From a virus, in IMG/VR virus record IMGVR_UViG_3300018080_000112, positions 1 to 64,000 of that record: 64,000 nucleotides of DNA; one strand, 5' to 3'. The position numbers were made by a program, and so were the translations under genes. Below, in pieces: positions 3,072 through 59,271 of this stretch. Numbering within the stretch: the first letter of the stretch is position 1; each line of letters begins with the position of its first letter. The notes beneath the pieces were generated by a model, which saw only the letters and a program-made list of their open reading frames with translations, ran no database searches and had not been told where the DNA came from.

Positions 3072-4409
3072 TTAGCCGGTTTTCTTGGGCATTTTGATTT
3101 TAAATGGTTGGTCACTGTACTCATACCCGTCATTCTTCTGGAGTGTTTTCAGATAGCGCGGATGGAAACCATCGACCGCTTTTCCATTGAGAGAACCAGA
3201 AACAGGTTTCAACATGAAAGATGGTTTTTGGCGAATCGTGATGCGACCTCGCCAGATTCCCTTCTTCGTTCCTTTCGTTACATCAGCTTTTACAAAGTCA
3301 CCCGTTTTGAACCCCTGACAAGCCTTGTTTCGAGTACGGTGAGCTTTCGCGAACCCGTGACTGTCTGGCTTGATCATCTTCCGGCTACCATGACCCATGC
3401 ACTTGATATACAGCGGCTTGACGCCGTTCGGTCGAAGATTATCAGGTGTGCTCGCGCCAACACAAGCGGCATCTTCCCAATGGGTCTTGCTCAGACCTCG
3501 CTTGATTCGATTGAACTTCGTGCGACCGCCAGACCCGCTTTCGAGAGGTAACCCGGTATCTTTTAGATGATTGAACAGACACCAGCGTGTTGAGTTGATC
3601 GCCGCCGCATCTCGCAAAGGAGCCTTCGCCTGTTTCAAGATCTTTTTGAGAAGGTCTGGTTTCTTTTTCAAGAACACTTTGATGTCCTTGTCACTCTTCC
3701 TCTTGTTACAAGGCGCACAGGAGAGCGTCAGATTCGAGATGCGATTGGTTCCACCCTTTGCCTTCGGTTGAATGTGTTCGACCTGTAAAGGGCGGTCTTC
3801 TTTCCCACAGTAGACACATTTGCGACCCCACTTCTCCAGGAGGTATTCTTTGACCTCGTACCCGTGGAGTTCGCCTTGCTGATATTCGACACCTTCGATC
3901 TCTGGGTTCTCCATCTTCTGGAAATCGAAGCTTACCAGTTCCATGCTGATTGCACCAACCGGAGCATACTTCATCAGCCGTCGTACCCACGTCATCGTGG
4001 TGAGGACCCGGTGCATCAAAGAAGGAGCCAGCCATCCTTTTGGTTTGGGTCTGTGTCGCCAGCGAGCCGGACGATACCTGGTCTTGCGAGCACGGCGATT
4101 CCGACGAACATCGCGGCGCTTTTTCATCTTGTCGGTGATTTGCCAGCCGCGATGATACAGAACAGCCGCCCAAACGATCTCACCGGTTTTGTCATCTAAC
4201 AGAACAATTCCGGTCTGTTTGCTACCGGGGTCAATTTTAATCCGAAGTGCCGGTGGTGTCTTTTCCTTGACTTCCTTTTTCATGATGATAGTAAAGGGGT
4301 AATAGCGCAACACCGCCGCCTTCCCGTCAGCCAGCAACTTCCTTCCTCTGCTTGGATGGCACGGATAAAGCGGGTTGCGCTCTGCATCTACGACAAAAAC
4401 TCGACTCAT
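3072..4409 (-). CDS. iscB: IscB RNA-guided endonuclease (RRXRR/PLMP, split RuvC, HNH)
   Basis: N-terminal VFVVDAERNPLYPCHP (PLMP domain), RuvC-I IDPGSK, Arg-rich bridge helix RRDVRRNRRARKTRYR, RuvC-II MELVSFD, HNH CVYC...EHIQPKAKGG..NL..SCAPCN, RuvC-III THWEDAACVG. Start set at MSRVF after a CAGGAG RBS. Confidence 0.95.
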   Translation of the reverse strand: MSRVFVVDAERNPLYPCHPSRGRKLLADGKAAVLRYYPFTIIMKKEVKEKTPPALRIKIDPGSKQTGIVLLDDKTGEIVWAAVLYHRGWQITDKMKKRRDVRRNRRARKTRYRPARWRHRPKPKGWLAPSLMHRVLTTMTWVRRLMKYAPVGAISMELVSFDFQKMENPEIEGVEYQQGELHGYEVKEYLLEKWGRKCVYCGKEDRPLQVEHIQPKAKGGTNRISNLTLSCAPCNKRKSDKDIKVFLKKKPDLLKKILKQAKAPLRDAAAINSTRWCLFNHLKDTGLPLESGSGGRTKFNRIKRGLSKTHWEDAACVGASTPDNLRPNGVKPLYIKCMGHGSRKMIKPDSHGFAKAHRTRNKACQGFKTGDFVKADVTKGTKKGIWRGRITIRQKPSFMLKPVSGSLNGKAVDGFHPRYLKTLQKNDGYEYSDQPFKIKMPKKTG

Positions 4410-4450
4410 CTCTGTGTTCTCCTGTGTGTATTTTGGACCCCGGTGTTCGC

Positions 4451-4834
4451 TTATTTCTTGTTCCACGGTTTGAATGTTGCGATGAACTCAAGAGAAGGAA
4501 ACGCCCCCTCGAAATGAAAAGCTCGGTCGTCAACAATCAAGACAGCCAGCGGTTTCTCAATGGGGAAAGAGATCTTCTCCAGTGCGGTTGTGGGTAGACC
4601 ATTGTCCAGCAACCATTTTTTCATCGCATCAATACCGCCTTCTTGTGCGTTTCTGGAAGAGAAGATACAGACCTCAAACTGGTCATCCTGACAGAGGTCC
4701 ATCAGCCATCGAATTGCTCCAGGAACCGGCGGGTCAGGAATCACGTCTGCGCCTTGCCACCGGGAGGAATACGAATGCAATACGCCATCAAAATCAACAG
4801 ATACTGTTTTCGCCATTTCTTTGATCTCCTTCAT
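4451..4834 (-). CDS. HAD-superfamily phosphatase-like protein
   Basis: VSVDFDGVLH motif I; IVDDRA motif IV. Confidence 0.75.
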   Translation of the reverse strand: MKEIKEMAKTVSVDFDGVLHSYSSRWQGADVIPDPPVPGAIRWLMDLCQDDQFEVCIFSSRNAQEGGIDAMKKWLLDNGLPTTALEKISFPIEKPLAVLIVDDRAFHFEGAFPSLEFIATFKPWNKK

Positions 4835-4850
4835 GTTGTCTCAAGTGGAA

Positions 4851-5318
4851 TCACCACTTACTTTGTTTCTCTCGCTTCTTCAGCGCTTTTGTCTTGCTGT
4901 TCTTTGTGACTTTCTTTGCTGGTCTCTCTATTTCGTTCGGTAACCCCTCCGGAAGAATCTCCTCAATAGCGGCGTCAAGAATCTCATCTGAAATAATCAC
5001 ATAGCTCGTAATATCCAGATGTAACCGCCTCATTCCCTCCAGTTCTCTGTTGTAGAACTCAATGGTCACTGGACCCTTCTTTTTCTGTATGGTGCAGATG
5101 CGCCAGCCGACCCGCTCAAATACCCGGCGGACGATATCGATAGCCCCCGAAAAAATGCGGCTTATCTCCCAATCCGTCTTGTAGACCATTTTTTCTTCGC
5201 CGTCATAGTTCTTGAGCAAATAGGCATCAATACGTTTGATCATCTCCTTCGCTTGACCCTTGGCATCATCTGAGATGTGATCAAAAGCTTCTCTGGGGGT
5301 TACAGGAACCATTACCAC
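4851..5318 (-). CDS. Hypothetical protein, tandem paralog 1
   Basis: PVTPREA start; ends KKREKQSKW. Confidence 0.7.
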   Translation of the reverse strand: MVMVPVTPREAFDHISDDAKGQAKEMIKRIDAYLLKNYDGEEKMVYKTDWEISRIFSGAIDIVRRVFERVGWRICTIQKKKGPVTIEFYNRELEGMRRLHLDITSYVIISDEILDAAIEEILPEGLPNEIERPAKKVTKNSKTKALKKREKQSKW

Positions 5319-5671
5319 TTACTCTCGCGCTTCTTTTTGGTCGCCTTTTCTCCACTATCTTCGGGATGTTCGGGGAAGTGCTCGTTCACAATCTTCTCGA
5401 ACACAGCGTCATAACTCTGGAGTAATGCCGCTTTTGTCACTCCGTTGGTGATCTCCCAGACCACAGCGGTCCAACCAGATCGCTTATAGATGACCTCCAC
5501 AGCTTCCTTTACGCCTGCAACAGGAGCCTCTTGACCAAGTGTTATGGTTATCCGACCAGAGCCGCTGTAGTCACTCAACAGCTTCTCATCAATGAGCTTG
5601 ACGAAGCTCTTGATCTGTTGCACCGCCTTATCTGAAAAATTTGTAAACGCTTCCATTGGTGTCACTGGCAT
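5312..5671 (-). CDS. Hypothetical protein, tandem paralog 2
   Basis: MPVTPMEA start; ends KKRESKW. Confidence 0.7.
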   Translation of the reverse strand: MPVTPMEAFTNFSDKAVQQIKSFVKLIDEKLLSDYSGSGRITITLGQEAPVAGVKEAVEVIYKRSGWTAVVWEITNGVTKAALLQSYDAVFEKIVNEHFPEHPEDSGEKATKKKRESKW

Positions 5672-5675
5672 GTCC

Positions 5676-6443
5676 TCACCATTTGCTCTGGCTCTCACGT
5701 TTCTTGAGCGCCTGTTGATGATCCACAGGTTCCTCCGGGTGCTCTCTTCCCCCCGACTTCTCGAACTCACCTTCTGGCAAATTCACCTTGAAGATCTGTT
5801 TGTCACTGACCAACTTGAACTTGTGCTTTGTATCTTTGCCAGTAGCCTCCCAGATCGCATCCTTCCAACCAGCTTCTATGTATTGTTTGATTACCTGATG
5901 GCGAGCGTACAATTTGAGCTTGCTGTACTTCTTTGGAATCTCATAAGTAATGGTGTGCTCTCCGTTGTAGTGTACCCTCAAATACTCATCAATGTTATTG
6001 ATTAGCTGTTTGATCTCTTGTTTCTCGTCATGTGACATAAATTTTGCCGCCTCTTCTGGTCCCACAGGCATCGGTAGTTCTCCTTTCTCCTCTCTTTCTA
6101 CATAAGGTAAACCAGACTCCTTTCTGAACTCCGCCGTCTCCCCTGGAGACATATGCATGTGTCTTGCTTGACCTATTTTTCCGTTACTCTTTTTCTGGAA
6201 ACCGTGGTTGATTCTTGTGTTGATGTCCAGTTTGATCACACCCACCAGCAATTCAATGTTTCCTTCTTCGTCTTTATTGGTCCGCAAGCTGGTGTACATC
6301 ATGGCTTGAACTGGCGAATGCATCTCCACTTCTTCGCCAGAAGGGAGAATCATATAAAGCAAGTCCCCAGCTACCGGGATGTAAATGCGCCTAAACTTTA
6401 CATGGACCGTATTGATCCACCTACACAAAACAAGTTCAGCCAT
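5676..6443 (-). CDS. Hypothetical protein; C-terminal half is paralog 3
   Basis: Internal MPVGPEEA preceded by AAAGGAG; ends KKRESQSKW. Confidence 0.65.
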   Translation of the reverse strand: MAELVLCRWINTVHVKFRRIYIPVAGDLLYMILPSGEEVEMHSPVQAMMYTSLRTNKDEEGNIELLVGVIKLDINTRINHGFQKKSNGKIGQARHMHMSPGETAEFRKESGLPYVEREEKGELPMPVGPEEAAKFMSHDEKQEIKQLINNIDEYLRVHYNGEHTITYEIPKKYSKLKLYARHQVIKQYIEAGWKDAIWEATGKDTKHKFKLVSDKQIFKVNLPEGEFEKSGGREHPEEPVDHQQALKKRESQSKW

Positions 6444-6447
6444 CGTG

Positions 6448-6930
6448 TTACTCTTCTTTTGGCTCCTCTGGTGTCAGGTAATCTTCACCTTGCGGAAACC
6501 AGAACTCTGGAATGTCCTCGATTTTCTTCTTTGCCACGACAGTCCGCCGGGACTGATAATGCACACTCACCAGTGCCCACCCGCGCCGAGAATCAGCAAA
6601 AGCATCGTGAAGTGATACCTTTCCCCCCAGAATGTCATCTTTCCGCTCTGGACTCACAGGAACATGCAAATACACATCCCGTTCCTGGTTGTGGTCAATG
6701 TGGACTGTGATGAAGACCTCTTTCATGCCATCAAGACGCGCACGACAGAAATACAATTGAGGACCGTCATACCAAACGATCATATCCGGGTCTTCTGGAT
6801 CTTTCGGAATCATCTCAAAGAACACTTTGTTTGAATCGTGGACCACTTCGTGGTTAAACATACTCACAACACCCGGTATCACGTGCATATCAATCTTCCT
6901 CCGCTCGCAAAGGACGCAAGCGTCGCTCAA
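6448..6930 (-). CDS. Hypothetical protein
   Basis: ORF in the minus-strand run. Confidence 0.55.
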   Translation of the reverse strand: MSDACVLCERRKIDMHVIPGVVSMFNHEVVHDSNKVFFEMIPKDPEDPDMIVWYDGPQLYFCRARLDGMKEVFITVHIDHNQERDVYLHVPVSPERKDDILGGKVSLHDAFADSRRGWALVSVHYQSRRTVVAKKKIEDIPEFWFPQGEDYLTPEEPKEE

Positions 6931-7285
6931 CCCACTTGTTCATTTGTTTGATGTTAAGTTCGACCGCATCTTGCAGTTCGTAGATATCGGCGGGACAATA
7001 GGACCCGTGAACACACAAATCCAGACAAACATCCCAGAGATAGCGAACCTTGTCTCGAAAGGTCCGTTCCCCTGTGATACCCTTCAGTTCAGACAAACGA
7101 GATGTGATGGAAAAGACGAGATCTGTCGCCTCTTGTGAATCTGTAAACACACACAAACGACCATCTGAATTGGTCAATTTGGATAGGTGGTCACATCTCC
7201 TTTCCAGGTACTCCAGCACAGCGCCGTATGCGCTCCCATAGGCATAGCGACTCATCGCCTTGTTACTTCTAAGTGGACTCCCCAT
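6890..7285 (-). CDS. Hypothetical protein
   Basis: AGGAGGAG RBS; lies downstream of a class A promoter motif. Confidence 0.65.
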   Translation of the reverse strand: MGSPLRSNKAMSRYAYGSAYGAVLEYLERRCDHLSKLTNSDGRLCVFTDSQEATDLVFSITSRLSELKGITGERTFRDKVRYLWDVCLDLCVHGSYCPADIYELQDAVELNIKQMNKWVERRLRPLRAEED

Positions 7286-7369
7286 TTCTCCTCCTGTTTC
7301 AAGTCTGTTAACCCTTTGTCTTAGCCATCTTCAAAGCTGTTGGCTTAATGCACGTCCTTCGGCTGTATC

Positions 7370-7404
7370 TATAGAGACACAAGTTTTGTCAAAAACGCAC
7401 CACT
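7370..7404 (-). promoter_or_regulatory. Class A bipartite promoter-like motif (A)GTGGT-N4-TTT-N9-TGTGTCTCTRTA; other copies at 12522, 14619, 17516, 19035, 24283, 27174, 34146, 39452, 48548, 60224, 63581
   Basis: 12 copies with an invariant 35-bp span, all upstream of minus-strand genes or RNA clusters. Confidence 0.75.
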
Positions 7405-7417
7405 AGAAATGAAAAAT

Positions 7418-7490
7418 AAGGCTGTTGACTGAAATTCGCAGGGATGAAGAAGGCTGTTGACTAACGCTCAATGACCCGGAAGGCTGTTGC
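7418..7490 (-). repeat. Short-repeat mini-array A (3 repeats, consensus GTCAACAGCCTT)
   Basis: AAGGCTGTTGAC on the + strand; period 30-32 nt. Confidence 0.75.
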
Positions 7491-7512
7491 TGTGGAATGG
7501 TATTTGTAGTTT

Positions 7513-7947
7513 TTAGTCTTCTATTTCCTCCGCCGCCATCTTTTTGACCCCCTTCATGTACTCGTTTCCGGGTTCAACGAAACCATCACGAACCAGTTGT
7601 TCGTTAACACAGACCAGTACGCCTTTTTGTCTTATCCAGACCATCGCTCGATAAATGGCGGTTGTATCTCGTTGGGTCTGAATATAGATCGTCTTGCCGT
7701 CAAGTAGACGGTAAACCGCGCCTTTTGCTTGTTCTTCCTTCTCTTGTTCTTTCTTGCTCTTGCTCTTAGCTTTCGATACTTTGATACCCCACAGCCGGAT
7801 AACCTCTTCTCGCTTTGTCTTCATGCCAAGTGACACTTCAACCTCAATAGTCTCGCAATCAATGACACGAAGAACCCGCGCTGTGTAGTGGTACATTTTG
7901 TCTGTGAACTCTTTGAGTTGAATCGTTCCCGGTTCCAATTCTTTCAT
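7513..7947 (-). CDS. Thermonuclease (SNase)-like protein, probably degenerate
   Basis: VLRVIDCETIEV, IRLWGI and VNEQLVRDG; the usual DGDT is altered. Confidence 0.65.
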   Translation of the reverse strand: MKELEPGTIQLKEFTDKMYHYTARVLRVIDCETIEVEVSLGMKTKREEVIRLWGIKVSKAKSKSKKEQEKEEQAKGAVYRLLDGKTIYIQTQRDTTAIYRAMVWIRQKGVLVCVNEQLVRDGFVEPGNEYMKGVKKMAAEEIED

Positions 7948-7967
7948 ACCCTGTGTTCTCCTATTGT

Positions 7968-8363
7968 TCAGAAATCAAATCCTACTTGTTTTGGCTTGCC
8001 TGTGTGCATCCGATGAACATAAACCTGCAATCCATAGCTCTTTGCAGTGGCGATCATGTTCATGGTTCCACGGCTCTGGTTGAACGGAACAGCAATCAAT
8101 GCGCCGCCACAAGGTTGACTGGATGCATAAACCGCCATCTCCTCATTACGCATAGGACCCGCTTGTTTTCCCCAATCCCTCCAGTTAGCTGGAAAGCGGA
8201 CCACCGGGATCTTGTTTTCCAATGCCCAACGCTCTCCCAATGAGTCTACACCAGGAGCCGCACCGGAAACAACTTTTGTGATTTCGAATTGTGAAAGAAG
8301 AATGGCGCGTTGAACAATCCAGAGATCTTTGAGGTGTCTACTTCCGGCGATGATGGTGACCAT
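7968..8363 (-). CDS. SLOG/YspA-like (DUF2493) protein
   Basis: IIAGSR, VSGAAPGVDSLGERWA, AGPMRNEEMA, SRGTMNMI. Confidence 0.8.
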   Translation of the reverse strand: MVTIIAGSRHLKDLWIVQRAILLSQFEITKVVSGAAPGVDSLGERWALENKIPVVRFPANWRDWGKQAGPMRNEEMAVYASSQPCGGALIAVPFNQSRGTMNMIATAKSYGLQVYVHRMHTGKPKQVGFDF

Positions 8364-8374
8364 GACGAACCCCC

Positions 8375-9004
8375 TTACAACGAAGAGCTTACTTCGTCCT
8401 CTTCGTCATCATCATCATCACCGTACAGATCCTGTTCCCACCGGCGTTTTGCTTCCAGAGCCTTCGCTTGTATGGTCTCGATATTCTGTCTCTCAGGTTC
8501 TCCGAAATCCAGAATACCGTCTTCATGCCAGATGCATCCAGATGGAACATCCACACCGCTGTAGAAGGTCAAGGAGAAGACCTCATCATGAGTCAAGCGG
8601 CTCTCTTCATCATCGCTGTAAAAGTTGAACATCAAGTTTCTACGGTACGGGTAGAACTCGATCCCGGCGTAATCTTCAGCCACTGCGTTCCAGTCAATCT
8701 GTTTGAAGGACATGAACCCGAGAGGACCGAAATCAACACCGTACTTAGCCAGGAACGAACGAAGCTCAGCAACCTCGCCTGGAAGAGTCAAGATGCGCTC
8801 GTGGTTCAACTTCGGTCGGTAGATGTAGGGGTACGCCCCTAACCAGTCCGGCTGTTCTGAGATGACCCACGCAAGCCATGCATCGCCGATACTGTACCAG
8901 AGTCCCCGTGGTTTGAAGTTGTCCGCGTTCACATCTGCGATGTTTTGGAATTGTAATTCTTCACTGCGGCTGTAGTGGATTCGTTCTAACTTGTTCATGA
9001 TCAC
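8375..9004 (-). CDS. Hypothetical phage protein
   Basis: KPRGLWYS and DVPSGCIW motifs; acidic tail. Confidence 0.65.
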   Translation of the reverse strand: MIMNKLERIHYSRSEELQFQNIADVNADNFKPRGLWYSIGDAWLAWVISEQPDWLGAYPYIYRPKLNHERILTLPGEVAELRSFLAKYGVDFGPLGFMSFKQIDWNAVAEDYAGIEFYPYRRNLMFNFYSDDEESRLTHDEVFSLTFYSGVDVPSGCIWHEDGILDFGEPERQNIETIQAKALEAKRRWEQDLYGDDDDDEEDEVSSSL

Positions 9005-9035
9005 TCCAATGTTAGGACCTAACCTTCAGTCAGGT

Positions 9036-9140
9036 TTCAGGCTGTTGACTTGCCTGGACTATACAATCGCGGCTGTTGACAAAGGGCACATAGCTACAAG
9101 GCTGTTGACTAAGCTTCATTATAACATCGCGGCTGTTGAC
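9036..9140 (-). repeat. Short-repeat mini-array B (4 repeats)
   Basis: GGCTGTTGAC ending at 9049, 9080, 9109, 9140. Confidence 0.8.
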
Positions 9141-10236: not shown

Positions 10237-10490
10237 TCAAGGCTGTTGATCGCTAAATATTCCCGTCATAACGGCTGTTGATCGGACACGTAGTTCAAAG
10301 CAAGGCTGTTGATGTTGCTTACCTTCTGACTCAAAACTGTTGATCCTACATTGGAACTAAAGTAAAAACTTGTTGCAGTTATCAAGCAACGCAAGAACTG
10401 CAAAAATTGCCATCAGTATGCCCCAAGCATACATCAGTTTCTTCATCACCTCATCAAACGGCATTTCGTCACCCATTCAAGGCTGTTGAT
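10237..10490 (-). repeat. Short-repeat mini-array C (4 phased repeats plus one at 10477)
   Basis: CTGTTGAT-type repeats ending at 10250, 10282, 10313, 10344, 10490. Confidence 0.7.
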
Positions 10491-13348: not shown

Positions 13349-13351
13349 TCC

Positions 13352-14214: not shown

Positions 14215-14912
14215 GTGATACGCTCCGAATCAAGAAAGGGTCTCTTTGGGTATAAGAAATATCACGACCTGAAGCAAGCTGAATTACGAGTCCAACAAAT
14301 CTATCCGCGCATTTGTCTTCTCTGTGGGAAACATAATCACACCAAAAATACGGGTCAGAGAATGCATCTCGGTGACTACATCTGTCTGTTTCTGCAAATT
14401 CTTGCACCAGAAGCTTTGTGTGGTTCCATGTGCAATCTGGCGCGTCTGTTTGGCGTAACCCATTCGAGCTAACTGTGAAGGTACTCGGATATCACAGCCG
14501 TCCGGCAACACCACATGAATTTGGGGCAACTGTAACGCATCTGTGGTCACAAACGTTATTTGATGAATTGGGAACGTCATTTCTTTGTCTCCTTGTGTTA
14601 CTCATTTTACCTCTGTGTAATAGAGACACATCAAAGATCAAAACGGAACCAGTAGACAATAAAAAAAGCCGGAGAAGGTTTGTCCTTCCCCGGCTCACTG
14701 CCAACTGGCTCGCTCTAGCCAGTCATCGTAGAGGTGTGTTGTCTGTCAAAACATGAACATTGTTTCCAGGATCTCGCATGCTTCCTTGATGCCGTCGTTG
14801 CATTCGAGATAGGTGCGAAACAATTCCCAGAGAACCAGGAGCACGACAATGACAAGAAGGACCAGCAAAAGCTTCCAGGCTGTTGACCGACTCATCACTT
14901 GCTCCTGTTATT

Positions 14913-15323
14913 TGGAGATGGCGGGATTCGAACCCGCGTCTTGAAACGTCGCTGTAAACGACTCTACGTGTGTAGTCAATCCTTCGTTTCCTTCACCACC
15001 AGAGTCATCAGATTGACAGATTCTCTGGTCAGCTACATCTCATAGTTTAGCCAGCACTAGCGAGATATTCCAGTCGCAGGCGATCTCGTGTATTTTTGCG
15101 TTTCCAGCAAGCCCACAAGCGAACTCACTGGACCCGTGGCGGTCACGCCGCCATTGCCACCGGTTGTTCCACCCGGTAATCCGCCATACTGACGACCTTA
15201 CCAGACGAACGATGTGATTTATTATCGTTGGCAGTTATCAAGTTTTCAGGTTTTTACAGAGCCTCCTGAACCTCTGACACGCATCGGATACCACTCCGCC
15301 CCAATCGATACCAAGTCATCCCC
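14913..15323 (-). ncRNA. ssrA: tmRNA
   Basis: 5' GGGGATG pairs with 3' CATCTCC-A, giving G3-U70. T arm GCGGGTTCGAATCCCGC. Tag frame 15232-15143 follows ATAACT and encodes ANDNKSHRSSGKVVSMADYRVEQPVAMAA*. Confidence 0.92.
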
Positions 15324-15425: not shown

Positions 15426-15560
15426 TGTCGAGTTAAGGTGAGAGTCAAACAAGTCGTTGTTCTACCACTAAACTATCCCCCGGTAAAATCGGGGGACCTG
15501 GATTCGAACCAGGGTCTACGGAGTCGCATTCTATCTGTAATGACTCTGCAGTTCTCGACA
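15426..15560 (-). ncRNA. YrlA-like Y RNA (terminal stem plus permuted tRNA-like domain)
   Basis: Outer stems TGTCGAG/CTCGACA and AGAGTCA/TGACTCT enclose a T arm (CCTGGTTCGAATCCAGG), a loop-closed acceptor stem and then a D arm (TAGTTTAGTGGTAGAAC). Confidence 0.7.
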
Positions 15561-15847: not shown

Positions 15848-15908
15848 GATCTTTCCTTCCTCTCGGTTGTTGACAAAATCAAGGCTGTCAATCCTCTCGG
15901 TTTTTCAG

Positions 15909-16831: not shown

Positions 16832-16924
16832 TTTCAGGCTGTTGGCGTAAGGCTGTCAACATGAAAGCTGATATCGTCTCAAAACGGTTGACTTAGGAGG
16901 ATCAGCATGTTCAAAGCTGTGGAC
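16832..16924 (-). repeat. Degenerate mini-array D, just downstream of the omegaRNA
   Basis: TCAGGCTGTTGGC, TCAAAACGGTTGAC, TCAAAGCTGTGGAC. Confidence 0.45.
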
Positions 16925-16959
16925 AAGGATTGAGGATAAAATTTTGCATCCCCCAAATA

Positions 16960-17256
16960 GGTGACCCCCGAAACGCTCAACAGCCAGATGACGTTCCGGG
17001 GGTCATTTGCTTAATCTAATAAGCCATCTCTGCGCCCTCTATGAGAGAACTAACAGGTGTTCGACCGGTGAAGGTCTAGTGAGCCTCGCCAATGCTAATA
17101 ATGCTTGTCACATGAGGTCGGTGTCAGTCAGTACGCCTTGAAGCACCCTGTGTTCCTTCCCCACGAAAGAGCCGGAAACTGGCTCGCGCATTCCGGGTTT
17201 CATGACAAAACTAGCGTAGTCCCCGAAGAGACTGAGGCTGGTCAACATCTGGCTGA
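16960..17256 (-). ncRNA. Stand-alone HEARO/omegaRNA scaffold lacking its 5' guide/GTCAAC strand, with an added 3' hairpin
   Basis: GTTGACCAGCCTCAGTCTCTTCGGGGACTACG..GTCATGAAACCCGGAATGCGCGAGCCAGTTTCCGGCTCTTTCG...TGACAAGC...CATTGGCGAGGCTCAC follows the HEARO motif order, including the GAGCC/GGCTC pseudoknot. Confidence 0.85.
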
Positions 17257-17267: not shown

Positions 17268-17377
17268 TAGTGAGGGTAGGATTCGAACCTACATCTGCCG
17301 GTATTTTCACACCCGCCGACTTTCCAATCCGGATCAAGGGGGTCAGCATTACCTGACTCCTTTTAGACCACCTCACC
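17268..17377 (-). tRNA. tRNA-Ser(GGA)-like with an expanded D arm
   Basis: Acceptor GGTGAGG/CCTCACT; T arm GTAGGTTCGAATCCTAC; loop TTGGAAA; long variable arm; extra hairpin in the D arm. Confidence 0.6.
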
Positions 17378-17381
17378 TTAA

Positions 17382-17466
17382 TGGACCGTGATGGATCTGC
17401 ACCACCGACCTCCGAGAGTTTACCTTGCGGTCAGCCCCCGGCGCTCTACTGCTGAGCTAACGATCC
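17382..17466 (-). tRNA. tRNA-like gene whose anticodon arm ends in a GCAA-capped hairpin
   Basis: Acceptor GGATCGT/ACGGTCC; D arm GCTC-AGCAGTA-GAGC; T arm GGTGG-TGCAGAT-CCATC. Confidence 0.6.
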
Positions 17467-17602
17467 CCGTCCAGATGACTTGAAAACTTTTTATTCTTTT
17501 TTCAAACAACATGTATATAGAGACACACCCTACGTCAAAGTGTAACCACTTTTTTTTCAATAAAATTCCACTTTTTTATTCTCCCTTTGAAATCAACGAG
17601 TT

Positions 17603-17794
17603 TCAAGGCTGTTGACACCGGGCTAGTTGAAAAAAGGCTGTTGACTGCGATCTGCAAGACTCTCAAGGCTGTTGACAATGGGGAAATGCCCTTTCAAGGC
17701 TGTTGAGGGGGTGGCAAAGACCTGGCAAGACTGTTGATAGTTAGGTAGAGCGGGGGCACGGCTGTTGACCAGGATTAATGGACCGGCGGTTGAC
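17603..17794 (-). repeat. Short-repeat mini-array E (7 repeats)
   Basis: Repeat ends 17616, 17645, 17676, 17707, 17738, 17769, 17794. Confidence 0.85.
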
Positions 17795-22712: not shown

Positions 22713-22724
22713 TTTGTTCCTCTT

Positions 22725-22767
22725 TCAGGCTGTTGACTACATAGATACGCGCTTCAAGGCTGTTGAC
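22725..22767 (-). repeat. Short-repeat mini-array F (2 repeats)
   Basis: Repeat ends 22737 and 22767. Confidence 0.7.
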
Positions 22768-45127: not shown

Positions 45128-45330
45128 CCAACCACAACACGGGAAGATTCTCCGGACCCTTGTCCTGAATCATCAGGTCATAATCCGCCGCAAGCGTCAT
45201 CACACCCTCCAGAGTCAACTGAAATGTGTAGATAGAATCTTGCTGGACCGCTCGCGGATGTGGTGGTTTATTCCCCATCCAATGACAAACCTGAAATTTC
45301 ACCATGGCTTTTCCTATCTTAGATTCTCAA

Positions 45331-45541
45331 AGTAAATCCCCATGTATATGGGGAATACTCCAACTCGCTGTCAGAGAAGATCTCCTTGACCGGAATATCC
45401 CCATGTATATGGGGAATACAGCCACAACCGTAAAATGGTGCCAAATAAACATGGAATATCCCCATGTATATGGGGAATACGGTCATCAAGGAGACGAGCG
45501 AAATCGAGCTTGCGGAATATCCCCATGTATATGGGGAATAC
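45331..45541 (-). CRISPR. CRISPR array 1: 4 repeats GTATTCCCCATATACATGGGGATATTCC and 3 spacers of 33 nt
   Basis: Repeats at 45331 (degenerate terminal), 45392, 45453, 45514; period 61; type I-E-like palindromic repeat. Confidence 0.95.
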
Positions 45542-45687
45542 TCTTCTTCTGTTCACCACGCTGTTTCGTATTCCTTTACACATGGATTTTACTGCTTCAC
45601 AGGCTATTGCCGTTAACGGTCTTACATAAGCCTCCACAGTCAGAACCGTCATATTCAGCCGGTTATAGAACTTAATACTCATCTTCT
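45542..45687 (-). ncRNA. TnpB reRNA-derived tracr-like RNA, copy 1
   Basis: AACCG-GCTGAATATGA-CGGTT..CTGTGGAGGCTTATGTAAGACC..GCCTGTGAAGCAG resembles IS605 tnpB right-end RNA. It is followed by the anti-repeat CCATGTGTAAAGGAATAC (45568-45585). Confidence 0.8.
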
Positions 45688-46835
45688 AAAACAGTGACGC
45701 CTTTTTGTTTTAAGATAGACGCCGCTTCTTTCCTTATGTTGATTGCTGCATTGATGTCGCGGTCATGTTTTACACGACAACAAGGACAGGTCCAGTTTCG
45801 AACAGAAAGAGGGAGTTTGTCTAACACCTCGCCGCAAACATAACAAGTTTTGCTGGAAGGAAAAAAACGATCAATTTTCACAAGGTGACCGCCGGTTCTC
45901 TGCATCCGCGTCTCAATTCTAGTTCCAAAAGCGCCCCAACTGGCGTCTGCAATCGCCTTTGACAATTTTCTGTTCTTTTGCATGTTCTTTACTTGCAAGG
46001 TTTCCAATCCCACAGCTTGTACGTCTTTCAATGTTGCTGCAATCATCTGGTGTTGATATGTCTCTCGCTTATTTGCAACCTGTGCTTCTCTCTTTGCGAC
46101 AACAATACGAGCCTTTTCTTGGTTTTTTGACCCCTTCTTCTTTCTGGAGTATTTGCGCTTCTTTCGCCGTAAATTATCTTGCGCTTTCTTCAAGAACTTA
46201 GGATTGTCAACCTTCTCTCCCTCAGACGTAATGAACAAGTGAGTCAAACCAAGGTCAAGACCCACAACATCATCAACTTCCGTTAATTTTTTCGGATACT
46301 TCAAACCATCATCAATCAACAGAGACATGTAATACTTAGCTGTAGAAGCTCTTTTTAGTGTACATGTCTTTATCTTTGCGCCGTCTGGAATATTGCGATA
46401 AACATTTGCCTTTACCCATCCGATCTTTGGAATCCAGACCCGTTTATAATCATCTGATACACGAACACCACAAGGATATCCTGCAGACTGACAATGGTTA
46501 CTTTTTTTCTTGAATTTTGGAAAATTGGCGCGTCCTTCAAAGAAGTTAACAAACGCACGATGGAGATTCATAACAGCCTGATTCATCACATCACGCGGCG
46601 CTTTTCGTAGCCACGGATTCTTTTTAATCAAGTCATTCAACCGCCGCATCATGCTATGTGCGTCTACTTTGACCCGCAAACGAATTTTTTCACCCGTGAA
46701 AGGAGATTCTTTATAGATCATCTTTCGCCATGCCAGCATATTATTAAATACCCAGCGTGACACATCAAAATGGTCCTGGAATTTCAATTTTTGTTCCTCT
46801 GTTGGTTTCAGTGGAACTTTGATTCCATACATCAT
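45672..46835 (-). CDS. tnpB: TnpB (IS200/IS605 OrfB) RNA-guided nuclease, CRISPR-associated
   Basis: HTH_OrfB-like N-terminus, FPKFKKK, RuvC triad GLDLGL / GLETL / HDRDINAAINI, and Zn ribbon CYVCG..CPCC. Start MMYG follows GGAGGAG. No tnpA nearby. Confidence 0.95.
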   Translation of the reverse strand: MMYGIKVPLKPTEEQKLKFQDHFDVSRWVFNNMLAWRKMIYKESPFTGEKIRLRVKVDAHSMMRRLNDLIKKNPWLRKAPRDVMNQAVMNLHRAFVNFFEGRANFPKFKKKSNHCQSAGYPCGVRVSDDYKRVWIPKIGWVKANVYRNIPDGAKIKTCTLKRASTAKYYMSLLIDDGLKYPKKLTEVDDVVGLDLGLTHLFITSEGEKVDNPKFLKKAQDNLRRKKRKYSRKKKGSKNQEKARIVVAKREAQVANKRETYQHQMIAATLKDVQAVGLETLQVKNMQKNRKLSKAIADASWGAFGTRIETRMQRTGGHLVKIDRFFPSSKTCYVCGEVLDKLPLSVRNWTCPCCRVKHDRDINAAINIRKEAASILKQKGVTVLEDEY

Positions 46836-46873
46836 AATCTTCGATCTCCTCCGGTTACAAAAGCACATAAAAC

Positions 46874-47084
46874 CTTATATCCCCATGTATATGGGGAATA
46901 CCTCAACCCTTCATCATCTGGGTCAAAGAGTAGGGGAATATCCCCGTGTATATGGGGAATACTCGCCGATTGGCCTGTGTGGTGAAGTCAAGTCGGGAAT
47001 ATCCCCGCGTATATGGGGAATACTTCCTGGTCCACTTTTTGTTCCTCTCGCTGGTCGGAATATCCCCGCGTATATGGGGAATAC
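46874..47084 (-). CRISPR. CRISPR array 2: 4 repeats GTATTCCCCATATAC(GC/AC/AT)GGGGATATTCC and 3 spacers of 33 nt
   Basis: Repeats at 46874 (degenerate), 46935, 46996, 47057. Confidence 0.95.
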
Positions 47085-47230
47085 TCTTCTTCTGTTCACC
47101 ACGCTGTTTCGTATTCCTTTACACACGGATTTTACTGCTTCACAGGCTATTGCCGTTAACGGTCTTATATAAGCCTCCACAGTCAGAACCGTCATATTCA
47201 GCCGGTTATAGAACTTAATACTCATCTTCT
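47085..47230 (-). ncRNA. TnpB reRNA-derived tracr-like RNA, copy 2
   Basis: Direct repeat of 45542-45687 with 2 substitutions; anti-repeat CCGTGTGTAAAGGAATAC. Confidence 0.8.
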
Positions 47231-47938
47231 TAAACGACCACACCAGGTGCAATACTGTTGACCATACTCACCGGGCGCTCGACTCTTGACCCAACTGTGA
47301 AATCGTCCTGGAACAGGATGGTTCGAACACACCTCGTTATCACAAGGGAAAAAATCATCCACTTTTTCAATTCTTTCCTTCCAGGTCCCATCTGGCTGGA
47401 GTTCCTTGAACACACGCTTTCCTGGCTTGCCTTTAGGTTGTTCAATAGATGCCACCACAGCATCCACAATCTCCGCGTCTTCCATAGGTTCCGTATTCTC
47501 AGCCAGACCAGAAAACGGGTCCGTGTCTCTCGACAAACCGCCGGGTCGGAAATCAAGAGGCATCTGCACCTCTGGCGGCTCGCGGTCTCCAAACAACTCT
47601 CGAATAGGAGCCAGGACCTCGTTAATGTGTGGGCGCACCGCATCTTCCGCTTCACGTAGCACTTGACGCGCCATATCTGCAACTTTCAGGTCCTTGTCTC
47701 CCGGCGGAAACTCACCGCGCCGAGAGAGGCGCTTATAAGCCGCAACAATAGGTTCATCACCGGAAGGGTCTTCTGGTACTTCCCACAACGACAAAGGTCT
47801 CTTAGGAGACTCTGGCGGCTCAATTTTGACCTGTTTCGGTCGTATGAAACGCAGATCAAACTCATCTTTGCCTGTAGAGATCTCATTCATCTCCTTCACC
47901 AGGTCTTCAATCAAAGAACCACTTCTGTTCCGACTCAT
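47222..47938 (-). CDS. Hypothetical protein with a C-terminal Cys/His motif
   Basis: ORF track; its stop codon lies inside the duplicated segment. Confidence 0.6.
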   Translation of the reverse strand: MSRNRSGSLIEDLVKEMNEISTGKDEFDLRFIRPKQVKIEPPESPKRPLSLWEVPEDPSGDEPIVAAYKRLSRRGEFPPGDKDLKVADMARQVLREAEDAVRPHINEVLAPIRELFGDREPPEVQMPLDFRPGGLSRDTDPFSGLAENTEPMEDAEIVDAVVASIEQPKGKPGKRVFKELQPDGTWKERIEKVDDFFPCDNEVCSNHPVPGRFHSWVKSRAPGEYGQQYCTWCGRLRR

Positions 47939-52533: not shown

Positions 52534-52606
52534 GACCTGTTCTCCTGTGTCGGTCGGTTACAAAAAAGGAACGCTTAATCAGATGAGGGCAAGACTTTTT
52601 TCTGAC

Positions 52607-54079: not shown

Positions 54080-54175
54080 ATCTGTAGTGGATCAACAACG
54101 CCGCTTCATCCGTCCGCCAGACCTTGCAACGCGGACATTCGTAATAAGTGATTTCGTGGCTCTCTTGTCCCTTGC

Positions 54176-54904: not shown

Positions 54905-55196
54905 GACAAAACATCAACGTACCCGGAGAAACCGGTATATCTGGATAACAGCGCTTCGCGAACTGAATCAGTTGCTTGTAGAACGCACTTTGCTTGTCCA
55001 TATCCTCCGGGTGTTGCGCATCATACTCAGCTTCCCATTGGCGCAAGTCATCCAACAAAGAACCCCACTTGTCCCGCAACTCAAACGCCAACTCCCGATC
55101 TATCGTTGCATAGAAGTGCATACAGGTCTCGTAATCGTATCCGTTCACCAGATAGACCACCGGTCCACTTACGTCTGTTTCTTTCTTGTCCATCAC
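54855..55196 (-). CDS. Hypothetical protein
   Basis: ORF track. Confidence 0.55.
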   Translation of the reverse strand: MMDKKETDVSGPVVYLVNGYDYETCMHFYATIDRELAFELRDKWGSLLDDLRQWEAEYDAQHPEDMDKQSAFYKQLIQFAKRCYPDIPVSPGTLMFCRGVCVEEVPLVWREHI

Positions 55197-55388
55197 CAGC
55201 TACCCAAAACGCTCTTCAATTCCATCACCGAAATCGAATCCGAAGCGATCTCCTCCGGATAAATCATTCCATCACCCTGGTACATCAACTTGACATTCAA
55301 GGACTGACTCGACATACCACCCTTGTCCAATGAAATCTCCAGTGACAAACTCCGAAAAGCGCTCTTTATCGCTTCTTCCACTTCGTGC

Positions 55389-56570
55389 TCATCCATCTTG
55401 TGCCTCTTTATCTTCCGCAAAGAGGTCTTCCACAGGACAGTCAAACAAAGCAACGAGTGCCTTCTTATGTTTGTCCGCGACTTTACGAGATAATCCGCGT
55501 TCGATTATCGAAAGTTGTCTTGTGGAAATGCCTGTGTGAAAAGTAACTTCGTCCAAAGACATACCGGTTTCATTTCGAATCTTCCGCAGCATCGGGATAA
55601 TGATCTTCGGCAAGCCTTCCTTTCTCGGTATGGTCGGTTTATTCATTTTGTTCTCCTTCCTTGATTTCTTTTTTACAGATTTCTTTTTATGAGATTCTTC
55701 AATCCCGCTTCCTAATCCCCACCTTTGACGATTATCCGGCTCTTCCCACAAACCACCAGCCCCAGGATGAGCCAAAGAAGAAGATGCAACATCACAAGAG
55801 ACACACAAAAAGACCTCTTTGTTGCTGTTCCAAATCAAATGGTCGTCTTGCTCATCCTCCCCACAATACCAACATTTGAAAATTCGACCTCGCGGCTCTC
55901 CATCTTCCTTTGTCATCGGTCGCTTATATGTTTCAACCGCTGCGTCATTCATAATTGTCAAATCACTTACCTGGTCATCCAGCGAACAAAACAATGACTC
56001 GTCTGATACAAAGGGCTTTAAATATTTTGATCGTGATGGATGACGAATCTTGCGTAATGCTCTCGCTCCGACCTGATTGACTCTTCCAGCACCAACACCA
56101 AGAGACTCACCAATCTCTCGCTCCGTTTTTCCAGCAATAAAATAACTTCTTAGAATAAACGCCTCTTTCGGCGACAATGTATCCAATACTTTCTCGATTT
56201 GACTACGTAACTCCAATTTATCAAAAACCTGGTCTGGCGAACTCAACAAGCGCTCCTGGTGCCCCGTTAACATCGGAACTATCTCATCCTTGTTCAGCTT
56301 CGAGCGAATCACGTTCTTCTTTATATCCATCACAGCATCTGGAAATAGTTCCTTCAGAGATACGTGATAGAAATCAGCCAAAGCAACCGCTGCAACACGC
56401 CACACCCCGCGCTTAGTAACCGGAGAAACCTTCAAAAGTTCTAGTTCCGAATAAGACGCCACTGAAACACCCAGAAGACAAGACAACTCTGGTATTGTCA
56501 AACCTAACTTCGTCCGTCTCTCCTTCAGCAAATTACTCCGAATACGGATCTCAACTTCAAGCTCTTTCAT
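55389..56570 (-). CDS. HTH + sigma70 region-4 + XRE-HTH protein (C-terminal HTH may start separately at 55646)
   Basis: LDTLSPKEAFILRSYF..TEREIGESLGVGAGRVNQVGARALRKIRHPSRSKYLK is RpoD region-4-like; XRE-type HTH motifs at both ends. Confidence 0.75.
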   Translation of the reverse strand: MKELEVEIRIRSNLLKERRTKLGLTIPELSCLLGVSVASYSELELLKVSPVTKRGVWRVAAVALADFYHVSLKELFPDAVMDIKKNVIRSKLNKDEIVPMLTGHQERLLSSPDQVFDKLELRSQIEKVLDTLSPKEAFILRSYFIAGKTEREIGESLGVGAGRVNQVGARALRKIRHPSRSKYLKPFVSDESLFCSLDDQVSDLTIMNDAAVETYKRPMTKEDGEPRGRIFKCWYCGEDEQDDHLIWNSNKEVFLCVSCDVASSSLAHPGAGGLWEEPDNRQRWGLGSGIEESHKKKSVKKKSRKENKMNKPTIPRKEGLPKIIIPMLRKIRNETGMSLDEVTFHTGISTRQLSIIERGLSRKVADKHKKALVALFDCPVEDLFAEDKEAQDG

Positions 56571-56886
56571 GAGCTACCACCACCGGCTCATCCAACACGA
56601 CCTCATCACGAGCCAGAATGAACATGTGGACGGGAACGGACTCCTCAATACCGTCACGCATCATCGATGTGACGCCCAAAGACTGTTCTTTGTCAATTCG
56701 CCACCCCTGGTTAAACAGCGTTTCCAGTTCATCGGCTCGCTCTTTCGTCCCGTGCTCCCCTTGGTAACGACCCGCATAAAACATGAAAACCTTGTACTTC
56801 TTCTTTGTAATCTGTTCCATCTTCCCTTCACTCCTCTTGTTTCTCTTGTTGCTCTTGTTCCAAAACGTCCTCAAAGAACCTCGCAT
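56557..56886 (-). CDS. Hypothetical protein
   Basis: ORF track. Confidence 0.5.
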   Translation of the reverse strand: MRGSLRTFWNKSNKRNKRSEGKMEQITKKKYKVFMFYAGRYQGEHGTKERADELETLFNQGWRIDKEQSLGVTSMMRDGIEESVPVHMFILARDEVVLDEPVVVAHERA

Positions 56887-57151
56887 CTACCCGCGACACA
56901 AACGCCAATAGCGATTTGTGCATCTTGTAGCTCTCCAACAAATCATCCCACTTGCGCATCCAGTCCAAAATCCCCTCTTCCGTCACACAGCACATCTGTT
57001 GCCACAGCGCCAGCAAAGTGAACTCCTTGAAAAACTCCTTTGGTAAACCACCAAACTCATACTCCCGCTGAATCTCCGTCACCATCTGCAATACATACGT
57101 CCGCGCATACTTCCGCCGCAACATCAAACGCTGTGTCTCACTTATATCCAT
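56828..57151 (-). CDS. Hypothetical protein
   Basis: AAGGAG RBS overlapping the end of array G. Confidence 0.6.
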   Translation of the reverse strand: MDISETQRLMLRRKYARTYVLQMVTEIQREYEFGGLPKEFFKEFTLLALWQQMCCVTEEGILDWMRKWDDLLESYKMHKSLLAFVSRVDARFFEDVLEQEQQEKQEE

Positions 57152-57164
57152 CGAACCGGCTCCT

Positions 57165-57364
57165 TCAAGGCTGTTGATCTCTCTACAGAAATACGCTCAA
57201 GGCTGTTGATGCGTCTGTCCAAAGTGGGCGCGGCGGTTGACATTAGACTCCTTTTTCTACCTGGCTGTTGACTCGTGGGAATACCGCTTCAAGACTATTG
57301 ATCCCTCGTCTCTGATTTTTCAAGGCTGTTGACAAGGACAAATCAATGACGCAAGGCTGTTGAT
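57165..57364 (-). repeat. Short-repeat mini-array G (7 repeats)
   Basis: Repeat ends 57178, 57210, 57241, 57272, 57302, 57333, 57364. Confidence 0.85.
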
Positions 57365-57394
57365 ACCCTTGACGATCCCACGTGGATATTGCTC

Positions 57395-57850
57395 TTATAC
57401 CCTCGGATCTCTCCGCGCTACAGGAACCTCCAGTCCCTTCTCAATGTAATACGCCAGCACACCCTCCGCGACCTTACCCAACTCCTCTACAGCTTCCCCC
57501 GGTGTCTCTCCTGTTTGACTGCATGCGCTGTGACCGAAATCCGGTAGCCACGCCAACCAATAGCTGTCTTCACCGTCCTCCATCCACTGCAAAGAGACCG
57601 GATACAACCTCAAAATCTCATCACCCGTTAACTTCTCCCCGTTGTAAGGGTGCGTACTTTCCGGACATAGCGGCTTGTACTTACCAAAATTGTAACGGTC
57701 ATTGTAGTGCTGCATCGCCGCCGCCCACGAAAGCGCCTCAAAAGACTCTACATGCTTCCGATCCACACCAAAAGCTAAATCCTTCTGTGTGTGATTCTCC
57801 GGGACCAAACCAGCATCACCGTCCGCCGTCTCCCATATCTCAAATTTCAT
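57395..57850 (-). CDS. Protein with a C-terminal HicB-like domain
   Basis: YPVSL...WLAWLPDFG..CSQTGETPGEAVEEL......LEVP. Confidence 0.65.
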   Translation of the reverse strand: MKFEIWETADGDAGLVPENHTQKDLAFGVDRKHVESFEALSWAAAMQHYNDRYNFGKYKPLCPESTHPYNGEKLTGDEILRLYPVSLQWMEDGEDSYWLAWLPDFGHSACSQTGETPGEAVEELGKVAEGVLAYYIEKGLEVPVARRDPRV

Positions 57851-57861
57851 CTCTCTTCTCC

Positions 57862-58156
57862 CCAGGCTGTTGACCTCGAAACCGTCTCTGGTTCAAGACT
57901 GTTGACTTTCTGAAACACTGAAACAAAGCTGTTGACCCTTGTGAGATATCTTTTCAAAGCTGTTGACCCTCCGAAACCTCATAGCCCAAGGTTGTTGACA
58001 TTTCGTCTCTTACGCAAACAAAGCTGTTGATATCCTCGATAACGGTTCTCAAGGCTGTTGATCTCTCCACAGAGATACGCGCAAGGCTGTTGACTATCTG
58101 CAGGTTGTCGCTCAAGGCTGTTGATTTCGCCAATGACGGAACTCAAGGCTGTTGAC
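57862..58156 (-). repeat. Short-repeat mini-array H (10 repeats)
   Basis: Repeat ends from 57874 to 58156; period 30-32 nt. Confidence 0.9.
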
Positions 58157-58169
58157 ACAGACAGGAGCT

Positions 58170-58586
58170 TCACAGCTTCGATACATCCGTCACCACCACA
58201 TCATCTCCCTTCAGATCTGTCCGACAAACGACACGCGGTGACACACCTGCAAACTTCTCCCGATACTCCCGTATAACCGGCGAATCCAACTCCGGATAGA
58301 TCCCGTGAATGTTCCAGAACCCTACATTGTCCGACTCTTTGCGGAACTCTCCGTACAACCCGTAACTCATCTCGATCACCAGGTCACCCTCCGGCGATAC
58401 GTCAGCATCTAAGAACGCCTGCGCGATCACCTCGTGAACTCGATACTTCTCCTGGTTTGTCTGGCTCATCTGACTCATCTGGCTTTTTTGAGAAAATTCC
58501 GATTGTCCGGAAGCGTCTCCATGATCTCCGTCACTTGCTTCAAAGACAACGGAAGATAGTTGTTGTTGTCCACTCCAACATCCCAT
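58170..58586 (-). CDS. Hypothetical protein
   Basis: Start is likely at MSQ near 58480. Confidence 0.5.
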   Translation of the reverse strand: MGCWSGQQQLSSVVFEASDGDHGDASGQSEFSQKSQMSQMSQTNQEKYRVHEVIAQAFLDADVSPEGDLVIEMSYGLYGEFRKESDNVGFWNIHGIYPELDSPVIREYREKFAGVSPRVVCRTDLKGDDVVVTDVSKL

Positions 58587-58993
58587 TGTTTACCAACAGG
58601 AGGCAAACCGCCGTGACTGTGACCGTACAGTTGCCAACTGTTGTAATGAGAAAGACCCCAAACTCGCATCGCGTAATGACAAACCACAATGTGCTGACCC
58701 GAAAGCTTCTTCTCCCAGATCTCATGTGCTGTCTTGTCCAACCACTGGTCGTGACTACCGCGCAAAAAGATGTGCGTCCCGTTCAGAGCCTCCACATACC
58801 TTTGCGCATCTTCGCCCCGTCGTAACGTGAAATCACCAGCATGCACCACAATGTCATTGTCCGTGACCACGCTGTTGTGCAAACGAGCCAACTCCACATC
58901 CATCTCCTCCACCGTCGCAAACGGACGGTCACAGTACTTGATGATGTTCGTGTGTCCGTAGTGCTCGTCCGCTGTGAAAAAATATGTGCTCAT
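58475..58993 (-). CDS. Calcineurin-like metallophosphoesterase
   Basis: ADEHYGH, AGDF, RGSHD, YGHSH, DVGVD. Confidence 0.9.
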   Translation of the reverse strand: MSTYFFTADEHYGHTNIIKYCDRPFATVEEMDVELARLHNSVVTDNDIVVHAGDFTLRRGEDAQRYVEALNGTHIFLRGSHDQWLDKTAHEIWEKKLSGQHIVVCHYAMRVWGLSHYNSWQLYGHSHGGLPPVGKQWDVGVDNNNYLPLSLKQVTEIMETLPDNRNFLKKAR

Positions 58994-59011
58994 CCCCGTA
59001 TCTACTCCGTT

Positions 59012-59271
59012 TCAAGACTGTTGACCTACCTAAAGAACTCAAAAAAGGCTGTTGACGATACATACTTACCTTTTCAAGACCGTTGACCCTGTTATTACGG
59101 GCAAAAAGGCTGTTGACCGTACCCGTCATGAAGCTCAAGGCTGTTGACACCTTCGCTGTTCCGCTCAAGGCTGTTGACAACGGTTTAGCCTTTTCTCAAG
59201 GCTGTTGACTATCAAGATGAGACAATCAAGGCTGTTGACTTGGACTCCCGACATCATTCAAGGTTGTTGAC
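59012..59271 (-). repeat. Short-repeat mini-array I (9 repeats)
   Basis: TCAAGGCTGTTGAC-type repeats ending at 59025, 59056, 59087, 59117, 59148, 59178, 59209, 59239, 59271. Confidence 0.9.

Follow-up and report, generated by a model that had tools for sequence, protein, structure and literature searches.

Dispersed short-repeat arrays and a trans-encoded omegaRNA beside a phage IscB: a possible split, multi-guide system

The first 64 kb of the virus record IMGVR_UViG_3300018080_000112 (the window from here on) encode an IscB nuclease that has no omegaRNA in cis, a single omegaRNA gene far upstream of it, and arrays of a 14-nt repeat placed between genes. Our best single reading of this layout, unproven and held with somewhat less than even confidence, is a split, multi-guide IscB that is fed by dispersed arrays and one omegaRNA acting in trans. 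Its fuller form we offer more tentatively: a hard-wired system in which about 85 guides would lie in messenger RNA leaders and be completed in trans by a tRNA-linked omegaRNA with a multi-strand adaptor helix, a living intermediate between the one-piece guide RNAs of transposons and the pairing of CRISPR RNA (crRNA) with trans-activating CRISPR RNA (tracrRNA). The record is a single contig of 143,941 bp with a CheckV completeness of 89% and a G+C content of about 49%, and essentially all of its genes are on the minus strand. It belongs to a tailed phage encoding a large terminase, a DNA polymerase, a Dda-like helicase and SbcC, and this phage looks lytic. No close relative was found among the GenBank phages by megablast or in IMG/VR by a TerL scan.

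The iscB gene occupies positions 3072..4409 of the minus strand and encodes 445 residues with intact RuvC and HNH motifs. The protein has the build of a full-length IscB (expected length about 400-500 residues), with an N-terminal PLMP/RRXRR region and a split RuvC domain into which the HNH domain is inserted. Pfam recognizes RRXRR at 4e-66 (222 bits) and HNH at 51 bits, the top matches in the Protein Data Bank are the IscB structures TbaIscB and OgeuIscB, and identity to named cyanobacterial and Chloroflexi IscBs is 55-59%. A preliminary description of this DNA had reported that all catalytic motifs are present, and six residues bear this out: D8, E157, H212, N235, H310 and D313 are retained and fall in columns that are invariant in an 11-sequence alignment. 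From what is known of the family, we take these residues to lie in the RuvC and HNH active sites. The true start is the ATG at 4409, which is kept in relatives, and not the GTG at 4466; 41 nt separate it from the stop codon of the upstream gene, in agreement with the figure of about 40 nt given before. There is no HEARO match within positions 1-9000 and no Y1 transposase (TnpA) across the 143,941-bp record, so that the absence of a cis omegaRNA and of tnpA, both claimed earlier, is borne out. In the four nearest IscB homologues, four of four, a cis omegaRNA scoring 83-129 bits ends 18-35 nt before iscB, whereas here the position directly before the gene, where an omegaRNA with its 5' guide would stand, is empty and the scaffold lies 12.6 kb away. 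The gene sits in the genome like any ordinary phage gene, with no omegaRNA in cis.

The scaffold is a separate gene upstream of iscB, directly behind a tRNA-like gene that has its own promoter-like motif. It contains the sole HEARO-type RNA of the genome (17074-17257, minus strand), where a lone omegaRNA scaffold had been placed at 16960-17256. When examined with cmscan, this core gives a full-model alignment to the Rfam family HEARO (RF02033) with an E-value of 2e-10, but its score of 58 bits is below the gathering score of 83 bits, as is that of its counterpart in a relative phage (contig L083; 53 bits, E 2e-8). The low score stems largely from a missing first hairpin and a 41-nt insertion. 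The core helices, namely the nexus, the central helix and the pseudoknot hairpin, are present and conserved. The transcript is placed at 16955..17255 (minus strand), and its conserved part opens with CAGCCAGAUGUUGAC (17255-17241). Beyond the Rfam model it runs on through two conserved hairpins, and conservation collapses right after them. The last of these, an extra 3' hairpin with a stem formed by 17004-16992 and 16975-16963 and a 16-nt loop at 16991-16976, shows a compensatory stem change between the two phages, while the loop is identical at 16 of 16 positions.

The guide adaptor hairpin of an IscB omegaRNA is the counterpart of the repeat:anti-repeat duplex formed by crRNA and tracrRNA, and the guide-target duplex measures 17 bp (PMC9640706). 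The cis omegaRNAs of the four nearest homologues all open with a GUCA(A/G) strand at the 5' end, which pairs with the strand that immediately precedes the nexus stem. Alignment of the phage RNA with them starts only at the adaptor 3' strand (GUUGAC, then CAGCC). The 5' strand and loop of the hairpin, about 45 nt, are absent and replaced by nine other bases, and the 3' strand UGUUGAC is kept at its usual junction with the nexus stem. The earlier claim that GTTGAC is retained and its GTCAAC partner lost is therefore true in the letters, but as a statement about structure it is unproven, with cmscan fitting a weak 5-bp mini-hairpin (AUCAGC...GUUGAC) in the place of the first hairpin.

Between the tRNA-like gene in front of the scaffold (17268..17377, minus strand) and the conserved start of the omegaRNA lie 12 nt. 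Another tRNA-like stretch is found at about 17385-17470 on the same strand, and the promoter-like motif is at about 17516-17550. Both tRNA-like genes (17268-17470) carry long insertions (about 110 nt); Rfam calls one of them (33 bits) and ARAGORN neither, and they may contain introns or be unusual tRNAs of another kind. Sequence shared with the relative sets in exactly at CAGCCAGAUGUUGAC, and the 12-15 nt between it and the tRNA are unrelated in the two phages. In the relative this leader (L083, 4909-4924) reads UUUCAAGGAUUGAAAC, a small hairpin that resembles a shortened anti-repeat and is absent from the window phage.

The 14-nt repeat reads RTCAACAGCCTTGA and was searched as GTCAACAGCCTTGA. 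At up to two mismatches the window contains 43 matches, all on the minus strand, where 0.63 would be expected by chance. Across the genome, up to three mismatches give 96 minus-strand and 8 plus-strand matches; the latter all have three mismatches and look like chance. By an array-context rule there are 84 copies in the genome, 52 of them in the window, close to the approximately 50 reported before, and they fall into 19 arrays or singletons. Conservation is restricted to the 14 core positions. As previously described, the period is 29-32 nt, and the spacers are unique and about 17 nt long (49 of the 58 internal spacers measure 16-18 nt, with a mode of 17). All credible copies are on the minus, or sense, strand, as the claimed co-orientation with transcription demands, and there is no credible antisense copy; because all genes are on one strand, orientation relative to transcription and to the genome are inseparable.

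Each of the nine places named in the preliminary description holds an array, all on the minus strand: four repeats at 7299..7461, split by a promoter-like motif at 7380; four at 9036..9140; four plus one at 10237..10490; three to four degenerate repeats at 16833..16924, directly 3' of the omegaRNA hairpin; six at 17603..17769, upstream of the promoter of the tRNA-omegaRNA unit; two at 22724..22767; six to seven at 57165..57364; ten at 57861..58156; and nine at 59012..59271. A degenerate pair at 15861..15892 and a single repeat at 14874-14887 are also on this strand. The longest array region (genome positions 70724-71327) has at least 17 units with paralogous spacer families, of the AGCG.AGTTCCGCATG and AGAGCATTCCGAA.G types, and these families show that arrays grow by unit duplication.

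Three partial anti-repeats in the omegaRNA transcript jointly tile the whole repeat. UGUUGAC (17241..17247, minus strand), the 3' strand of the guide adaptor hairpin, is the complement of repeat nucleotides 1-7; GGCUGUUGA (16977..16985, minus strand), in the loop of the 3' hairpin, is the complement of nucleotides 2-10; and UCAAGGC (17135..17141, minus strand), in the 8-nt loop predicted for an inserted hairpin that the HEARO model lacks, is the complement of nucleotides 8-14. The first is a perfect 7-nt complement at the exact position of the adaptor hairpin; it is short, and the repeat is identical in all relatives. Judged from the sequence, this position is exactly what a split guide RNA would require. 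Apart from GGCUGUUGA, no antisense copy of the repeat core lies between genes anywhere in the genome. When sliding windows along the sense strand of the 144 kb were scored for at least three complementary 7-mers, 4 of 7182 qualified, all at the omegaRNA locus. Duplex energies of -15.9 and -15.3 kcal/mol lie in the 3% tail, and the two best duplex sites fall in predicted loops with unpaired probabilities of 0.82 and 0.65. The terminal loop is predicted to pair alternatively with the 5' end of the omegaRNA over 10 bp.

Pattern and protein look-ups led to a diverged relative phage on metagenome contigs L024, L032, L040, L042, L045, L076, L082, L083 and L084, and to a closer one on contigs L081 and L086. 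Proteins of the diverged relative are 40-86% identical to those of the window phage, and identity at four-fold degenerate sites is 0.44, near saturation. The relative has iscB, scaffold and arrays in the same layout, which bears, within one clade, on the co-occurrence check that had been suggested: L082 carries iscB without a cis RNA and with the same gene order, and L083 has, at the corresponding place, a tRNA with a HEARO-type RNA behind it that shows the same three anti-repeat segments and compensatory stem changes. The two omegaRNAs are about 90% identical, with pair-preserving changes in two stems. A different tRNA (L083, 4807-4908; 47 bits) occupies the tRNA position. In the relative, 22 sense-strand repeats lie within 15.8 kb and the arrays occupy orthologous positions. 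A further fragment, L046, has the same repeat and a palindrome described below; it has zero proteins in common with the window phage and no informative Pfam match. In the window phage many repeats surround the terminase gene, and in more distant phages, whose TerL is 58% identical, there are none around it. Three related phages keep iscB as a fixed gene. That iscB, omegaRNA and arrays travel together in one examinable clade is one evolutionary observation, not many. Other matches of the pattern scans, which covered metagenomes, genomes and IMG/VR (gut metagenome-assembled genomes (MAGs), JAABU and JAEEG contigs, and a cyanobacterial MAG) were mostly coding or satellite repeats with conserved "spacers" and were set aside as unrelated.

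Most spacers differ between the window phage and its relative, but 9 of 70 relative spacers match window-phage spacers at up to two mismatches, where about 0.01 would be expected under drift as seen at four-fold degenerate sites. Several conserved spacers belong to arrays that are not orthologous, and their conservation exceeds that of the flanking repeats. The three spacers beside the omegaRNA (array 16833..16924) are an example: over 15-17 nt they are identical to spacers in three different arrays of the relative, and they too are better conserved than neighboring repeats. Because such spacers are conserved beyond the adjoining repeats and have moved between arrays, some of them are selected for their own sequence and are portable, which fits guides or another trans-acting RNA and not neutral linkers. 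An apparent excess of antisense ribosome-binding sites plus ATG in the spacers (4 observed, 0.56 expected) was dropped, as homologous copies had been counted twice.

How might such a system work? We suppose that a small phage clade domesticated an IscB of the IS200/IS605 type and split its guide RNA. Processing of the tRNA would free the 5' end of the scaffold, and the intergenic arrays would be transcribed inside the all-minus-strand operons. Each unit, consisting of about 17 unique nucleotides followed by GUCAACA and GCCUUGA, would deliver a guide together with the missing adaptor strand; GUCAACA would pair with UGUUGAC, and GCCUUGA may pair with the UCAAGGC loop. The loop of the 3' hairpin could pair either with the 5' end of the scaffold (10 bp) or with the repeat core (9 bp) and may in this way lengthen the composite helix or gate it. 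Once loaded, IscB would cut DNA that matches a spacer, probably that of the host or of a rival phage, and the repeat that follows each spacer in the phage's own DNA would act as a flank other than the target-adjacent motif and prevent self-cutting. The polarity of the units and the spacer mode of 17 nt agree with the 5' position of the guide in IscB systems and with their heteroduplex of 16-17 nt.

A number of observations weigh against a split guide. The earlier claim of a split crRNA/tracr-like multi-guide IscB is partly borne out: the architecture is real and conserved and the anti-repeats do tile the repeat, and the use of these RNAs by IscB is putative. Protospacers were found neither in the phage's own genome nor in about 90 kb of its relatives, and none beyond chance in IMG/VR, where two fully conserved spacers gave 11 and 2 matches, at chance level and without a common flank. 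The putative adaptor duplex is only 7 bp, and 26% of the repeats begin with A, which mispairs with C. The genome seems to encode neither a route for acquiring spacers nor an enzyme for processing them: the 144-kb record, at a completeness of 89%, contains no match to Cas1 or RNase III, and Cas2 was not searched for. The 5-bp mini-hairpin is also allowed by RNAfold, and the cis omegaRNA of a Nodularia phage likewise has a very short first hairpin. Variants of the repeat follow a plain GC-to-AT bias with no wobble bias, and wobble-tolerant variation is not supported (per site, C-to-U is about equal to G-to-A, and A-to-G to U-to-C). Finally, the complementarity statistics are post hoc, and regulatory repeats are a feature of this phage, since two other dispersed motif classes are present.

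Could the repeats then be cis-regulatory elements, arrays of asymmetric sites bound by a protein of the phage or the host, acting as a DNA roadblock or operator or in mRNA leaders on the timing or translation of early genes, with IscB and its RNA forming a separate domesticated or selfish module? Taken by itself this explanation is doubtful, but it is nearly as likely as a split guide. About 25 GTGTCTCTATA boxes and about 30 GTTAGGWCCTAAC palindromes are dispersed as well, and the phage encodes its own sigma factor. Eight of the 19 arrays stop 10-19 nt before a start codon, none lies in the structural-gene half of the genome, and those of the relative are at orthologous positions. The repeat has palindromic arms, TCAA-N5-TTGA, and its 31-bp period corresponds to about three helical turns; both fit a protein-binding site. 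Oriented intergenic repeats are moreover known in phages, such as stoperators and the repeats of halovirus HF2. A binding site leaves unexplained, however, why three conserved anti-repeat segments cluster in the omegaRNA transcript and why the conservation of spacers exceeds that of their own repeats and spacers have passed from one array to another. In addition, one array of six repeats precedes a tRNA promoter and not an open reading frame, and no candidate repeat-binding protein was identified.

Two further explanations retain a role for the omegaRNA and differ in what they make of the repeats. The omegaRNA may act on the arrays by antisense pairing without guides, its loops UCAAGGC and GGCUGUUGA binding repeats in mRNA leaders near ribosome-binding sites and affecting translation or stability, or the arrays may sponge the omegaRNA and so gate IscB. 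We consider this unlikely. It is favored by the location of the two best duplex sites in accessible predicted loops, by the loop that stays 16/16 conserved across a compensatory stem change, by repeats that abut Shine-Dalgarno sequences, and by the switch-like layout in which the same loop can pair 10 bp with the omegaRNA 5' end. Yet it does not account for the fixed spacer length of about 17 nt, for the polarity, for spacers that are conserved and portable, or for the retention of an intact nuclease and a full scaffold, and UCAAGGC is partly buried in the predicted fold of the relative's RNA. Least probable, in our view, is a trans omegaRNA in one piece, with a minimal first hairpin in cis, a guide of 10-16 nt left by tRNA processing, and a merely coincidental similarity to the repeat. 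The 5-bp hairpin fitted by both programs and the similarly short hairpin of the Nodularia phage point in this direction. Against it, the leader measures only 12 nt and shows no conservation between the two phages, the hairpin shrinks to 4 bp in the relative, candidate leader guides match nothing in either phage, and the tiling by anti-repeats is ignored.

How does a split guide compare with known systems? Altae-Tran et al. are said to have reported CRISPR-associated IscB in 2021. DelIscB is a precedent for a CRISPR-associated IscB (PMC12660989), in which the 5' end of an omegaRNA-like scaffold carries the anti-repeat that pairs with a spacer-repeat guide, interference proceeds without adaptation genes and guides are 16-17 nt, as would be the case here. 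The known system has one array beside its scaffold and gene, whereas the phage spreads its repeats over about 19 intergenic places across 100 kb; the known direct-repeat:anti-repeat duplex is long enough for experimental truncation, in contrast to a 14-nt repeat; and the phage scaffold lies 12.6 kb from iscB, is fused to a tRNA and has its anti-repeat split into three short segments. If the split guide is true, the dispersed, ultra-short-repeat, trans-scaffold layout would be a variant of CRISPR-associated IscB and not a new category. With the canonical IS200/IS605 IscB-omegaRNA (OMEGA) systems, exemplified by OgeuIscB (PMC9640706), the phage shares 55-59% protein identity, a HEARO-like core and the same adaptor-nexus junction; it differs in having no TnpA, no cis arrangement and no adaptor 5' strand or loop, and in its extra 3' hairpins. 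The two-RNA logic proposed for the phage, in which a short guide-bearing RNA pairs with a scaffold encoded elsewhere, resembles the crRNA:tracrRNA of type II CRISPR-Cas9, but in the phage there is no match to Cas1 or RNase III (Cas2 was not searched for), the repeat is less than half the normal length, and spacers measure 17 nt instead of about 30 nt. Nor do the arrays look like a classical CRISPR array, in which repeats measure about 23-55 nt, spacers are similarly long or longer and a single locus has a leader: in the phage, repeats of 14 nt and spacers of about 17 nt are spread over about 19 loci.

Stoperators are single sites bound by the prophage repressor. The phage repeat shares with those of mycobacteriophages, and with other oriented phage repeats, an asymmetric site of 13-14 bp that occurs dozens of times per genome, between genes and in one orientation; it differs by its tandem arrays of up to 10-17 units, the 31-bp period and the complementary segments in the omegaRNA. 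In halovirus HF2, oriented intergenic repeats carry promoters (PMC8707807).

If the split-guide proposal is true, the transition from OMEGA to CRISPR is possible without a classical array or adaptation genes and with a repeat of 14 nt, and phages can hide dozens of fixed guides in mRNA leaders. The repeats are too short for any array finder, and because array finders miss them the search space for RNA-guided systems would widen. The phage would also provide two natural parts, a minimal crRNA of about 31 nt that serves a compact nuclease and a tRNA-processed scaffold. If the repeats are regulatory, the clade still offers a domesticated IscB with a trans-encoded omegaRNA and unusually rich, conserved phage control motifs.

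The promoter-like boxes belong to a longer motif, GTGG..TTTGACAAAA..GTGTCTCTATA, which is present in about 25 copies on the sense strand and kept in relatives; in the window it is found at 7380, 12532, 14629, 17526, 19045, 24293, 27184, 34156 and other positions. It is possibly read by the phage's own sigma factor, a sigma-70-family gene at genome positions 104809-105009. The 14-nt repeat itself was considered as a sigma-70 promoter and rejected: it has no conserved -10 element at any fixed distance, arrays abut start codons, and this separate, clear promoter motif exists. The GTTAGGWCCTAAC palindrome, 13 bp long, is nearly always intergenic and often followed by a T-rich stretch (examples in the window are at 9011, 16810, 19141, 24371 and 26799). 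It is common to the relatives and the L046 fragment, and may serve as an operator, as a processing site or as a weak terminator.

A transfer-messenger RNA (tmRNA) with an unusually long tag peptide is encoded at 14912-15323 on the minus strand (133 bits), and a weak match to the Y-RNA-like YrlA lies beside it at 15436-15536. The orthologous place in the relative (L024, L083) gives no tmRNA match, so that the gene is a recent gain or loss. The phage also encodes a TnpB of 398 residues (45672-46868, minus strand) with the Pfam domain OrfB_IS605 and a Cas12f1-like TNB domain. It is flanked by two mini-arrays (window 45320-47235, minus strand), each with a 27-nt palindromic repeat in four copies, a 61-nt period and 34-nt spacers, and these spacers match nothing in the phage's own genome or among GenBank phages. 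Each mini-array is preceded by a copy of a 180-nt element, the two copies being 97% identical, and this element overlaps the 3' end of a gene in the fashion of a TnpB omegaRNA.

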